A stretch of 64,000 nt of DNA, taken from NCBI RefSeq assembly GCF_041886205.1, contig NZ_CP169029.1; one strand, written 5' to 3'. This document shows positions 5,303 to 44,178 of the stretch, one piece after another. This DNA comes from Escherichia coli. GTDB taxonomy: Bacteria; Pseudomonadota; Gammaproteobacteria; Enterobacterales; Enterobacteriaceae. Within the stretch, counting starts at the first letter, position 1, and each line of letters starts with the position of its first letter. Made by a program: the position numbers and the translations under genes. A model generated the notes under the pieces. It had not been told where the DNA came from. It did not search any database and worked only from the letters and a program-made list of their open reading frames with translations.

Positions 5303-5496
5303 GTACGGGCGTCCAGCCAGATGAATAAAACGCGCGCAAATATGCGTCATTTTTTGACGTGCATCAAGTTTTTTAACCGGTTTGAGAAAAAAACATCAAA
5401 CAGCAACTTGCCCTTATCCATCTTCAGAATGAGTATGATTGCGGATTTTCTTAACCCGTACTATACACATAGGGGCAATGATAAAAGGTGGCAAAA

Positions 5497-28540: not shown

Positions 28541-28794
28541 CGACTAAAAGCCTCTTTGCGTCACATTTTTACAACAATTATTGCAGAGAAGATTAATGCT
28601 ATTGGAATGAAGAGAGTAACGAATGGCTAAACCGAATGACGAAAAATTCTGGAAAACAGCACGCAATTTCGTGAAGTGATTATTTCGTCCCTAAGGAAAC
28701 CTCATAGGATGCCTGCGGGTGCCTGAGACTTTCTGTTTTCAGGCTAACCGGGAATCAGAAAGACGAAGGCCCAGACCGATATTTCTATCAACCG

Positions 28795-29012
<218 letters not shown>

Positions 29013-29083: not shown

Positions 29084-29257
29084 TCAGTTAGTGCATGTTT
29101 TTTTCGATGCACTAATAGAACCATCATTACAGACAAATTTGCCGCCTGCCGTACAGTGTGAGATCCCCCCTTTCGAACCAGAACAGGGTTAGCGCCCGGC
29201 ATCGGCATAAAAGGAAACAAGCGTTCCCATAAACAAAATAAGTGCCAGTTTTTTCAT
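29084..29257 (-). pseudogene. ydcA: ydcA interrupted by ochre stop at codon 23 (58-codon frame otherwise intact)
   Basis: Minus-strand translation [63 protein letters not shown]; stop at 29189..29191. Confidence 0.7.
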
Positions 29258-29427: not shown

Positions 29428-29491
29428 CTTCCGATGTAGACCCGTATTCTTCGCCTGTACCACGGGTCGGTTTTAGTACAGGCGTTTTCTT
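29428..29491 (+). ncRNA. rydC: Hfq-dependent sRNA RydC, ~64 nt
   Basis: CTTCCGATGTAGACCCGTATTCTTCGCCTGTACCACGGGTCGGTTTTAGTACAGGCGTTTTCTT matches recalled RydC sequence; TATAAT -10 at 29417..29422; terminator hairpin plus U-run. Confidence 0.8.
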
Positions 29492-29501
29492 GAAATATCC
29501 T

Positions 29502-30032
29502 TCAGGAACGTTTACGCGGCATCATGCGTAGAAGTGTGTTGTCCTTCCAGAAATAGTGGTGTGCCAGTGCAGCCGCAGCGTGCAACCCGATGACAAAATA
29601 TCCCAGATTCGCCAGCGTTTCATGCCACGACTTTAAGCTATCTACCCGTTCGAAATTGGCCTCTGAAGCGTAAGGCATCGTCAAACCAAACGCAAACCAC
29701 GGGTTACCCCGGTTATACATCATCACCAAACCAATCACTGGCAGCGCAATAAACAGGAGATAAATCACCAAATGTCCCAAATGCGCCAGTCCCGTCATCA
29801 TCGGTTTTGGCTTAGGTATAATCGGCGGGGTTGGGTATTTCAGCCTTAACAAAAGACGAACGACCATCAGCACGAGAATTGAGATGCCGCAGGAAACATG
29901 AATCATGTTGATGAGCGGCCGATCGCTACGTGGGAAGAAACCACGAAACTCCATTGCGCAATACGCTGCGATAACCAGTAAAAAGACCAGCCAGTGAATG
30001 CTGATTTGTAACCTTGAGTATTTATTTTCCAT
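29502..30032 (-). CDS. cybB: Cytochrome b561 CybB, 176 aa
   Basis: ORF 29502..30068; ATG at 30032 (MENKYSRLQISIHWLVFLL); four TM helices with conserved His. Confidence 0.9.
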   Translation of the reverse strand: MENKYSRLQISIHWLVFLLVIAAYCAMEFRGFFPRSDRPLINMIHVSCGISILVLMVVRLLLRLKYPTPPIIPKPKPMMTGLAHLGHLVIYLLFIALPVIGLVMMYNRGNPWFAFGLTMPYASEANFERVDSLKSWHETLANLGYFVIGLHAAAALAHHYFWKDNTLLRMMPRKRS

Positions 30033-30220
30033 AACATTTCCTGCTTTAACATAATTTTCTGTTAACATAACGGGCTTTTCTCAAAATTTCATTAAATATT
30101 GTTCACCCGTTTTCAGTACGTTACGTTTCACTGTAAGAATGGAGATTGCCCATCCCACAATCCTGGTCTAAGCCTGGAAAGGATCAATTTTCATCCGAAT
30201 GTTCCTGACAGGAGAAAACC

Positions 30221-31222
30221 ATGAGTAAAGTTGGTATTAACGGTTTTGGTCGTATCGGTCGACTGGTGTTGCGTCGATTACTTGAAGTCAAAAGCAACAT
30301 AGACGTTGTCGCTATTAATGATCTCACTTCCCCAAAAATTCTCGCCTACCTGCTGAAACATGATTCAAACTACGGACCATTCCCCTGGAGCGTTGATTTT
30401 ACGGAAGATTCACTTATCGTTGATGGGAAAAGTATCGCGGTTTACGCCGAAAAAGAGGCTAAAAATATTCCGTGGAAAGCGAAAGGTGCAGAAATCATTG
30501 TCGAATGTACTGGCTTTTATACCTCCGCCGATAAATCGCAGGCGCATCTTGATGCTGGTGCGAAGAAGGTGTTGATTTCCGCTCCTGCCGGTGAAATGAA
30601 AACCATCGTTTATAACGTTAATGACGACACTCTGGATGGCAACGACACCATTGTTTCCGTGGCGTCATGCACCACTAACTGCCTTGCGCCGATGGCCAAA
30701 GCCTTGCATGACAGTTTCGGGATAGAAGTCGGCACGATGACGACCATTCATGCCTATACTGGCACCCAGTCACTGGTGGATGGCCCACGTGGTAAAGATT
30801 TACGTGCTTCACGCGCAGCGGCAGAAAATATCATTCCCCACACTACGGGGGCGGCAAAAGCCATTGGTCTGGTGATCCCGGAACTGAGCGGCAAACTGAA
30901 AGGTCATGCGCAACGCGTGCCGGTGAAAACAGGTTCGGTCACTGAACTGGTATCGATTCTCGGAAAAAAAGTGACTGCCGAAGAGGTGAATAACGCACTT
31001 AAACAAGCAACCACCAATAACGAGTCATTTGGTTATACCGATGAAGAAATAGTCTCTTCCGATATCATTGGCAGCCATTTCGGTTCGGTGTTTGATGCCA
31101 CGCAAACGGAAATTACCGCCGTGGGGGATTTACAACTGGTGAAAACGGTCGCCTGGTACGATAACGAATATGGCTTCGTCACGCAGCTTATTCGCACCCT
31201 CGAAAAATTCGCTAAACTCTGA
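30221..31222 (+). CDS. gapC: Glyceraldehyde-3-phosphate dehydrogenase GapC, intact 333 aa
   Basis: Uninterrupted ORF 30221..31222; NAD-binding GxGxxG (NGFGRIGR) and catalytic SCTTNC motif. Confidence 0.9.
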
Positions 31223-31230
31223 CGCGCACA

Positions 31231-31258
31231 GGCGGAGGAAAAAACCTCCGCCTCTTTC
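31231..31258 (+). terminator. Rho-independent terminator after gapC
   Basis: Hairpin GGCGGAGG-aaaaaa-CCTCCGCC followed by TCTTTC. Confidence 0.6.
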
Positions 31259-31263
31259 ACTCA

Positions 31264-32703
31264 TTAAGACTGTAAATAAACCACCTGGGTCTGCAGATAT
31301 TCATGCAGGCCATGTTTACCATCTGCGCCGCCAATACCGGATTTACGCCATCCGGCGTGGAAGCCTTGCATAGCTTCGAAGTTTTCACGGTTGATGTAAG
31401 TTTCACCAAACTTCAGCCCTTTAATGGCTTTCATCGCGACGTTCAGATTTTGGGTATAGATTGATGAGGTCAGGCCGTAATCACTGTCATTAGCCATTGA
31501 GATAGCATCTTCCAGCGTGTCAAATGCGACAACTGGCAGCACCGGGCCAAAGGTTTCCTCATGCATAATCGACATTTCCTGGCGAACATCCAGCAGCAAT
31601 GTCGGCGGATAATAATATCCTTTCCCCTCTACCGCTTTGCCACCCAACGCCACTCTCGCCCCTTCTTCTACTGCGCGCGCCACTTTTTGCTCGACCCTTT
31701 CCAGCGCCGCGGCGTTAATCAACGGCCCCATCGCAATGTCGTTGCGTTCAGCGGGGTTACCAAATTGAACCGCCTGCATCGCTTCACCCAGCCGATTGAC
31801 GAACTGATCATAAATGCCTTTCTGTACATAAACACGTTCTGCACAGTTACACACTTGCCCACTATTAATGACGCGTGAATCAACGATGGCTTTGACTGCC
31901 AGTTCAAGATCGGCATCGTCCATTACGATAGCTGGTGCTTTACCACCCAATTCCAGACACACTTTAGTGATGTTTTTCGCCGCAGTCGCCATGATCTTCT
32001 CACCTGCAGAGACGCTGCCTGTCATACTGACCATTGCGACCTTTGGGTTACCCGCCAGTTCTTGCCCAACGGTTTCACCACGCCCCAGAACAAGGTTAAA
32101 CACGCCGCGCGGAAGGCCTATTTCATCGACGATTTTGGCGAATGCAATCGCATTGTTTGGCGTAAATTCACTGGGTTTAATGACGATGGTATTACCGGTC
32201 AAAAGAGCGGGAGCCATTTTGCGGGCAATGAGGAAGAACGGGAAGTTCCACGGCAGAATGCCGGTAGTCACGCCAAGTGCACGTTTAAACAGAAGAATAT
32301 TTTCTCCTGGACGATCGCTTTGAATAATCTCGCCCTCGTAACGCCGTGCCCACTCCGCCATGTAATCGATATAGTCCGCAGTAAAAGCCACTTCGACTTC
32401 AGCCAGCTGCTGGATCTTGCCCCCTTCTTCAACAATCAGCGCACTGATTTCACTGGCGCGTTCGCGGATCCCGGCGGAGATTTTGCGCAACCAACTGGCG
32501 CGTTCAATGGCAGGCAACGCTTCCCATTCTGGTTGTGTACGTTCTGCTGCATCGATTGCCTTACGGGCATCCTCGGCCTGACCATCGGGAATGCTGGAAA
32601 TGACAGCCTCTGTAGCAGGGTTTACCACATCAATCCATGCGTCTCCACGCCAGGTAACAAACTGTCCATCAATATACATAGGATGTTGAACGGGTACTGA
32701 CAT
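31264..32703 (-). CDS. aldA: Lactaldehyde dehydrogenase AldA, 479 aa
   Basis: ORF 31264..32703; aldehyde dehydrogenase family. Confidence 0.9.
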   Translation of the reverse strand: MSVPVQHPMYIDGQFVTWRGDAWIDVVNPATEAVISSIPDGQAEDARKAIDAAERTQPEWEALPAIERASWLRKISAGIRERASEISALIVEEGGKIQQLAEVEVAFTADYIDYMAEWARRYEGEIIQSDRPGENILLFKRALGVTTGILPWNFPFFLIARKMAPALLTGNTIVIKPSEFTPNNAIAFAKIVDEIGLPRGVFNLVLGRGETVGQELAGNPKVAMVSMTGSVSAGEKIMATAAKNITKVCLELGGKAPAIVMDDADLELAVKAIVDSRVINSGQVCNCAERVYVQKGIYDQFVNRLGEAMQAVQFGNPAERNDIAMGPLINAAALERVEQKVARAVEEGARVALGGKAVEGKGYYYPPTLLLDVRQEMSIMHEETFGPVLPVVAFDTLEDAISMANDSDYGLTSSIYTQNLNVAMKAIKGLKFGETYINRENFEAMQGFHAGWRKSGIGGADGKHGLHEYLQTQVVYLQS

Positions 32704-38730: not shown

Positions 38731-41701
<2,971 letters not shown>

Positions 41702-41871: not shown

Positions 41872-44178
41872 TCAATACAACTCATCAAGTTTTCTCATCG
41901 CTTGTTCCCGTATTGCGCGCGTCTTACCGTTAAGCGCCAGCTGGCGGACTAAATCCAGTTCAGGGTTAACAAGCTCTAACGCCAGCAAAGGATCACGTTT
42001 CAGCCTCGCCTTTAATACATCAACTGGAAAACGGGGATTATTCATCGCCACAATCCACCACTCGGGATCAATTTCTGCCGCCAGTACTGCAGGCGGTGTG
42101 TGGCGGTTGTTAAGTGCGCCGAACTTGAAAAATGTGAGATTGCTTTTCGCCAGTGTACTCCACCATATACGATCCGGTTGTTTTGCCAGTACATCCAGTT
42201 GTGCTAACGCATCGGGGTCGAGTGCATAATAAACACGTAATGCTTCATCAACCTGCGCACGGGAGCTGTTTTCCTGCCTCAGAAAAAACTTCGCCCAAAT
42301 ATCATTGCGTGGCGTATTTTGCTGTAATTCCTTGAGGACAACAGCGGGTAAATTATCCCAACTAACTAATGCACTCTCTAAAAAGTCCCAGTCTTCCAAA
42401 CGTATCAGGGCGGTGGCATTTAATAGCATCTGGTCATCAACTTCACCGTGGCTGATAAGCTCAGACAAAATCATATCAGCGCTGGTTTCATATGCAGCTG
42501 AATCTGCTTTCGGATTATTTTTCCGATGTGATAAAGCACGTTGCCAAATTTTTTGTTTCATCGCCGTACTCAGATACTGATTTTTCGCCAGATTACTCCA
42601 CCCCTCAGGATCGTTGAAACGTGTCAATAACCGTTGTAAAGCAGCGTCAGAGTGAATTACCTGCATATCCCGACAGCAAAAGTAGGCAGGGGATTTTTTC
42701 TCCATCCTTTTAACAAAATTAAACTGTAAGTTATCTGGCAACGCTAAAAATAACGCACCTATTAGATCATCGTCATTCTCGAATTTTTGGTATAAATATA
42801 CTGCTATTTTGTCACTCTCTTGTGGCGTCATCCGCAACAATTGACCATGGTGTTTCATCTCTGCCAGCTTTAACGCTAAGCTTGTGACAACATCGTTTGA
42901 TGAATCGTTCGCCAACTGCATTGCCTGATTGTAGGTGAGTTGTCCTCCAGCACCGACCTGACGAATAGAGGAATCATCACTGCGGATATAGCCATCAATA
43001 ATGGATTCGGGCAATAACCACGCATCTTTATAAAGCTCCTGAATGATCATATCCCAATCTCTTTTCGCCAGAGTCATGACGATATCCAGAGGGAGATTTT
43101 CACGTAGCGCAAGATTCAACGGACCGACACCATCAGGTAGATGACTCATTCGCGTCATTATTTCGACAGAGAGCGGTTCACGGTCGAGCAACCCCAGAAC
43201 AACAGGCTGGTAACCCAATTGCTGATCGGTCAACTCCAGAATCTCATTGTCCGGCATATATCTCGCCATACTTTCAATCGTTTGTTCATCATTGCTATTA
43301 ATAAGTTGTTTGCGTAGGTTAGCTGAAATTCCTTTAAGCCTTGGGAGAGTTCGCATTATGGCAAGATCAAATGTCGCAATATCTCGTCCTTCAAATGCAG
43401 CAACGTTGCCTTCATCCAGCATTTGCAATTCCTGCACTAACTCAGGAGAAGGCTTAGGGCGAAACAGCGCTTCTTTTTTCATCTGATTACAGACATTCCC
43501 TGCCATGCGAATATTGCTTCGCTTAAAAATTTCTTTCAGAGCATCTTCATCATTTATTCGACCCTAATAATATGCATCAGGATTTATTATCATCAGCGCT
43601 TTTTTGACATTTTCAGTGTCATTTTTGTCACTCGCACGGACCATGAATTCACTATTTGTCGAAGACGCAACAACAGGTGCAATTATGTCATTGATAAATA
43701 TCCCACGCGCATTAATACTCCCCTTAATCGTAGACGGATTATCGTAATATGAGTCGATAAATACCAGTCCACTTGCATTTATCGAACCGGTAATTAACAG
43801 TGGCGAATCTGTAACTATATTTGTTGCCGTCACGTTACCGAGAATAACCCATGGATTAGAAAGAGAGAAAGTGGAAATATTACCTTTGACTGTCAAATTG
43901 CCAAGAACAATCAATTTTTGATTACTCTCTATATTACCTTCTACCACTAAATCGCCACGATGCACTTTCCAGTCCGATGCAGATAAACCGAAGGGGACAA
44001 GATTCACGCTACTGTTGATAGCTTGTTCAACTTGTTGTTTATCTTCAGCGGTAGCTGCAGATAAAAATGGTTCAATATCAACTGCATTTGCAACACATCG
44101 AAGTTCCGCCTGTACTGGAAGACTCAGCATAAACAGGGGAAGTAAACCTATCCAGCTGCAAATCCTGGGCTTAAACAT
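41872..44178 (-). pseudogene. ydbD: ydbD (DUF2773) split by in-frame amber codon into 204/206-aa and 544-aa ORFs
   Basis: ORFs 43564..44184 and 41872..43506 are in the same frame, separated by TAG at 43564..43566 and 19 open codons; total matches a 768-codon frame from ATG 44178. Confidence 0.65.

Follow-up and report, generated by a model that had tools for sequence, protein, structure and literature searches.

Does the gapC locus of this E. coli strain still encode a working glyceraldehyde-3-phosphate dehydrogenase (GAPDH), when the same gene has decayed in the reference strain K-12? In MG1655 the counterpart is annotated as the pseudogene gapC (b4493), which PGAP flags as 'frameshifted; internal stop', and older papers list the K-12 gene as 'gapC_1 b1417, interrupted'. 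The K-12 gene b4493, formerly gapC_1/gapC_2 (b1417/b1416), occupies the same place between cybB and aldA as the gene described here. The preliminary description of this locus had taken K-12 gapC for a pseudogene, and the b4493 annotation, the PGAP flag and the older papers all agree with it. The window analysed in this study is the whole stretch of 64,000 nucleotides, and all positions are given within it. In our judgement, positions 30221-31222 very probably hold an intact ancestral gapC allele which encodes a homotetrameric type I NAD+-dependent phosphorylating GAPDH (EC 1.2.1.12).

The listing of open reading frames in the window gave a single uninterrupted frame on the plus strand at 30221..31222, which starts with ATG, runs through 333 codons, ends in TGA and encodes a type I NAD-dependent glyceraldehyde-3-phosphate dehydrogenase of 333 aa. 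A Shine-Dalgarno sequence (AGGAG; 30210..30214, plus strand) could be read 6 nt 5' of the ATG. The product contains the Pfam domains Gp_dh_N (PF00044) at residues 3-102 (E 6.8e-36) and Gp_dh_C (PF02800) at residues 155-313 (E 6.5e-58), and it scored 446.4 bits against the type I GAPDH model TIGR01534, whose curated equivalog cut-off is 367.2, with model positions 1-330 of 330 covered. The Rossmann fold is marked by a GxGxxG motif at residues 5-14 and by D34, the acidic residue specifying NAD, which was invariant in the alignment. The catalytic domain carries the SCTTN motif at residues 149-153 with the catalytic Cys150 (codon 30668..30670, plus strand) and the catalytic His177 (codon 30749..30751, plus strand), both read from the sequence and invariant in the alignment. 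The residues of the anion (Ps/Pi) site, T180, R198, T209, G210 and R232, are all there. This residue alignment of nine sequences included seven enterobacterial GapC proteins, two from Escherichia and five from other genera, together with GapA. T180, R198, T209 and R232 were invariant across it, while G210 was found in 8 of the 9 sequences and replaced by W in the cluster representative P0001. Apart from this W, the orthologs and GapA agree in their catalytic and anion-site residues.

The gene is flanked by cybB (cytochrome b561/superoxide oxidase; 29502..30032, minus strand), which is transcribed divergently, and by aldA (aldehyde dehydrogenase A; 31264..32703, minus strand), which converges on it. 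This position and the near-identity to the K-12 gapC DNA identify it as the ortholog. Beyond these two genes the locus continues with ydcF and hrpA in one direction and with ydcA, hokB/sokB and trg in the other. The preliminary description had proposed an intact gene of 333 codons which retains the NAD-binding and catalytic-Cys motifs and lies next to aldA and cybB. All of this was borne out, by the one plus-strand frame at 30221..31222, by the motifs at residues 5-14 and 149-153, and by the open reading frames of the window together with the annotation of an identical genome.

Alignment with K-12 gapC, the check which that description had proposed, was carried out and located the K-12 lesions at codon 39 and at a run of seven A's. 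The gapC region of the window is 98.7% identical to K-12 at the nucleotide level over 1201 bases, with 11 differences in the 1002 coding bases. Two of these differences are disabling (K39* and the loss of one A from the run), two change amino acids (R18G and D104E) and seven are synonymous. Codon 39 (30335..30337, plus strand) reads AAA (Lys) here and TAA in K-12, which is the first K-12 lesion. The second lies in the A7 homopolymer of codons 248-250 (30964..30970, plus strand), which is shortened to A6 in K-12 and causes a -1 frameshift. A pattern search found a run of only three A's at the poly-A site of some lineages, among them an APEC O2:K1 strain, and the pattern was unmatched in three divergent loci. 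Substitutions may have interrupted the run in those lineages, and the homopolymer whose slippage broke the K-12 allele would then be lacking there. The remaining amino-acid difference from most E. coli alleles, from K-12 and from the crystallised enzyme is codon 104 (30530..30532, plus strand), which is GAT (Asp) in the window and GAG (Glu) in the others. The exact 61-mer of the D104 allele is present in at least 80 complete genomes, and residue 104 is either D or E among the orthologs and E in GapA, therefore D104 raises no functional concern.

The 1201-base gapC region was found in 5417 of 5426 complete E. coli genomes. It matched at 5432 places, five of them on records labelled plasmids, which could be F-prime-like elements or mis-assigned replicons. 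Twenty loci were annotated, namely 18 taken from an evenly spaced ranking, the best match and a BL21 derivative; they were chosen, not drawn at random. Sixteen of them carry an intact gene of 333 codons that RefSeq names 'type I glyceraldehyde-3-phosphate dehydrogenase', and these span O157:H7, O26:H11, ST131, two APEC strains, the BL21 derivative and the most divergent lineages. The other four are broken. The stop and the frameshift occur together in K-12 and in a human isolate from Beijing, and the stop alone occurs in a human isolate from Tanzania. In the raw-milk strain SCPM-O-B-7615 the gene was lost independently (L004 3122-5299), with IS1A between a truncated aldA and a gapC remnant of about 66 codons; a further hok-family toxin gene lies beside hokB at this locus. 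The broken fraction was estimated from k-mer counts rather than from the twenty chosen loci. The exact 61-mer around codon 39 was found with AAA in at least 3221 genomes and with TAA in at least 1152, and the poly-A run as the A7 67-mer in at least 1425 and as the A6 66-mer in at least 1041; these allele-specific counts are lower bounds, as nearby SNPs break exact matches. Among the sampled loci, genomes with neither 61-mer, e.g., O157:H7, have AAA together with nearby synonymous SNPs. About 21% of complete genomes thus have the K-12 stop allele, so that roughly one in five sequenced E. coli carries the K-12 lesions and the remaining genomes are mostly intact.

Five positions separate K-12 from the nearest intact allele, i.e., R18G, K39*, two synonymous changes and the deletion in the A run. 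The stop-only isolate has R18G and K39* as K-12 does, yet it retains A7, which indicates that the stop came first and the frameshift later, and that this happened in a natural lineage. Loss of gapC in the K-12 lineage was stepwise, with R18G and K39* preceding the slippage from A7 to A6. Seven TAA carriers sampled at even spacing comprised JM109 and six natural isolates, which came from pigs, humans and river water. The K-12 gapC lesions have been attributed to laboratory strains accumulating mutations (PMC2949598). Unlike that published phrasing, our results describe them as a polymorphism of a natural lineage that was gained stepwise, and this is what the present analysis adds to the literature.

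Selection on the protein was estimated from 15 distinct intact alleles. Their pooled pN/pS was 0.045, with 68 polymorphic codons showing synonymous changes only versus 11 with an amino-acid change, and dS reached 0.18 while dN was at most 0.008. Such a low ratio at this synonymous divergence argues for strong, long-term purifying selection on GapC. Orthologs of 88-97% identity were found in E. albertii, Citrobacter, Trabulsiella, Klebsiella, Enterobacter, Scandinavium and others. The Citrobacter order cybB-gapC-aldA-ydcF-hrpA is exactly that of the window, and Klebsiella has gapC-aldA-ydcF. Since orthologs and gene order are shared across genera, the intact gene is the ancestral enterobacterial state, and gapC is passed on vertically in Enterobacteriaceae as part of the block cybB-gapC-aldA-ydcF. 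The gene had been described as laterally acquired (PMC1796617). A recent lateral acquisition was rejected because the same block is present in Citrobacter and Klebsiella and the GC content of gapC (47.9%) is close to that of the window (49.5%); the data are compatible with an ancient transfer that preceded the divergence of the family.

The enzymatic function can be judged from a nearly identical protein. The protein in PDB entries 7C5F, 7C5H, 7C5P and 7C7K and in the accompanying mutant series is identical to the window protein at 332 of 333 residues, the sole difference being E104 versus D104. It was named 'EcGAPDH1' (E. coli type 1 GAPDH) by Zhang et al. (Biomolecules 2021; PMC8615399), and it is encoded by the intact gapC allele that is commonest among the sampled loci and has E104, whereas the window allele has D104. 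According to that article, EcGAPDH1 is an NAD-linked, phosphorylating G3P dehydrogenase with a Km of 0.73 mM for D-G3P; C150A abolishes its activity, C150S lowers it about 10^4-fold and H177A about 8000- to 10^4-fold. The article also reports structures of complexes with NAD, with phosphate and G3P, of the thioacyl intermediate and with 1,3-bisphosphoglycerate, and the assays described there were run at pH 10 and 50 C, which has little bearing on the physiological role. GapC of the window should likewise act as a canonical phosphorylating GAPDH, an activity that is published for the variant differing at one residue and that we infer for the D104 allele. Cys150 would attack the aldehyde of glyceraldehyde-3-phosphate with His177 acting as the base, hydride would be transferred to NAD+, and phosphate would then cleave the thioacyl intermediate to give 1,3-bisphosphoglycerate. 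The suggestion in the preliminary description that the strain may encode a functional GAPDH-like enzyme is supported by the enzymology and structures of the protein identical at 332 of 333 residues and by the purifying selection. Its count of a 'third' such enzyme is right in the sense that gapC stands beside gapA, whose product is 46% identical, and epd.

These paralogs can be told apart from GapC. GapA (b1779), the housekeeping glycolytic GAPDH, has the same fold, catalytic residues and reaction, but it shares only 46% identity with the window protein and is encoded at a separate locus. The window protein reached 298.7 bits against NF011954/PRK15425, which we take to be the model of the GapA type and which has a cut-off of 662, and identity with GapA was rejected. 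Epd (GapB, erythrose-4-phosphate dehydrogenase) is another paralog of the GAPDH fold in E. coli, and it was rejected with 279.4 versus 539 bits for NF010058 and 275.6 versus 530.55 for TIGR01532. The ArsJ-associated GAPDH (NF033735) was rejected with 306.3 versus 450 bits, and the neighbours of the gene are cybB and aldA instead of arsJ. In the searched text of PMC8615399 the terms gapC, gapA and BL21 are absent, and studies of secreted E. coli GAPDH are cited in its introduction. The literature on the secreted enzyme concerns GapA, so readers may mistake the GapC structures of the 7C5F series for the housekeeping enzyme.

As for expression, the gapC promoter must lie within the divergent cybB-gapC intergenic region of 188 bp (30033..30220), which was compared with K-12 and 17 other loci and has six differences from K-12. 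A scan of 29950-31350 for sigma-70 consensus promoters gave nothing convincing in this intergenic region; its one weak site (30026-30055) overlaps the 5' end of cybB, and fewer sites were found than in shuffled sequences. In K-12, a ChIP-seq peak of sigma-S RNA polymerase lies between gapC and cybB (PMC4447067), and published K-12 data show that the gapC transcript responds to RpoS and CRP conditions. Both PMC2949598 and PMC1796617, citing Espinosa-Urgel and Kolter 1998, state that environmental isolates have an intact gapC, which is expressed preferentially in fresh water. We infer that the window allele is expressed and that it provides an alternative GAPDH in stationary phase, when nutrients are scarce or outside the intestine. 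From its upstream ATG, the cybB frame extends over 29502-30068 (minus strand; 188 aa), whereas RefSeq gives 176 aa with the start at 30032; the extra 12 codons of the longer frame reach into the intergenic region. In T7Express, the BL21 derivative, IS1A is inserted between cybB and gapC (L003 253-950, at about window position 30102), some 170 bp upstream of the gapC start, which leaves the gene intact and interrupts its native upstream region. On the other side, a GC-rich hairpin with a 9-bp stem and a 6-nt A loop is located between the convergent gapC and aldA stops (31230..31253). Its folding energy is -18.3 kcal/mol (z = -4.4), none of 200 shuffles was as good, and the stem is conserved in 18 loci. 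The consensus terminator scan of 29950-31350 did not call this hairpin, which is without a T tract; it is a probable bidirectional terminator.

The wider surroundings were compared with other genomes. Window positions 20000-44999 are essentially identical (shown as 100.0% over 25,000 bases) to wlxctx60, the complete genome of a strain from Asian black bear faeces in Japan, and nearly identical to VE-T9 and the bovine strain XJ5.2. The gapC gene of wlxctx60 is annotated as intact (WP_000048653.1). The opposite situation is found 1 kb away in ydcA (29084-29257, minus strand), which has a K23* nonsense codon in the window strain and is intact in K-12, a mirror image of gapC; RefSeq flags an 'internal stop' in ydcA of wlxctx60 and LHM10-1 as well. 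The wlxctx60 annotation also places a ydbD with an internal stop in the region covered by the minus-strand stretches 41872-44178 and 40037-41701 of the window, along with two adjacent remnants, one of a hydrolase/methyltransferase without its N-terminus and one of a CDP-alcohol phosphatidyltransferase without its C-terminus, which suggests that a deletion fused these two remnants. Two RNAs of the neighbourhood scored above their Rfam gathering scores. The sRNA RydC (29428-29491, plus strand; 92.5 bits) lies just past the 3' end of cybB, and the sok antitoxin RNA (28717-28868, plus strand; 97.8 bits) belongs to the hokB/mokB/sokB type I toxin-antitoxin system.

Several other explanations of the open frame were considered. 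That it is an artefact of assembly or sequencing, such as a miscounted A7 homopolymer, deserves hardly any credence. Some platforms do make errors in homopolymers, and the frameshift of K-12 falls exactly in such a run, but the K-12 stop, which is a substitution rather than an indel, is absent as well, and the exact A7 context recurs in at least 1425 complete genomes. An artefact is made unlikely by the 25-kb identity to an independent complete genome with an annotated intact gene and by the reading frame at the poly-A site, which is kept in all 16 intact loci sampled. It is also improbable that the frame is intact but cryptic, i.e., silent or physiologically irrelevant in a lineage that has yet to acquire a lesion. 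The pN/pS of 0.045 across lineages at dS up to 0.18 speaks of long-term purifying selection, synteny and 88-90% protein identity extend out to Citrobacter and Klebsiella, and the promoter region binds sigma-S polymerase and the gene is transcribed even in K-12. These observations have to be set against the absence of a consensus sigma-70 promoter in the scan, the independent IS1-associated truncation in SCPM-O-B-7615 and the roughly 21% of genomes that do with the K-12 stop allele. Being absent in function from about a fifth of genomes, gapC is dispensable at least in that lineage.

A further possibility is that GapC is an enzyme of the GAPDH fold whose main role is other than glycolytic oxidation of G3P, for example a gluconeogenic, cold-adapted or moonlighting one. 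E. coli already has an essential housekeeping enzyme in GapA, which shares only 46% identity with GapC, the paralog Epd offers a precedent as an erythrose-4-phosphate dehydrogenase, and the gene adjoins aldA, which encodes another aldehyde dehydrogenase. We nevertheless consider such a role very improbable. The protein passes TIGR01534 and fails the Epd and ArsJ-associated models, and its Ps and Pi sites have the residues of a canonical GAPDH. With NAD+ and phosphate, the near-identical enzyme converts D-G3P, and its crystal structures contain G3P, the thioacyl intermediate and BPG.

The intact gene is the common, ancestral and already published state in most E. coli and no peculiarity of the window strain. 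Its intactness outside K-12, in environmental isolates, was published in 1998, it is routine in RefSeq, and the enzyme has been solved and assayed, so the finding is not novel in itself. It shows that K-12 is atypical at this locus, a reminder for metabolic models and for engineering. Both often rely on the 'gapC site' of K-12 derivatives for neutral integration (PMC11340173), a practice that should not be extended to strains whose gapC encodes a functional second GAPDH and is under selection. The view that the K-12 lesions arose in the laboratory is likewise corrected by the allele counts. Whether they represent natural stepwise pseudogenisation that became fixed in a large wild lineage, rather than laboratory domestication, while the gene is kept elsewhere under strong purifying selection, is a proposal to which we give even weight for and against. 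If it is true, the presence or absence of gapC would separate ecologically distinct groups of E. coli, which might differ, e.g., in how they survive outside the host.
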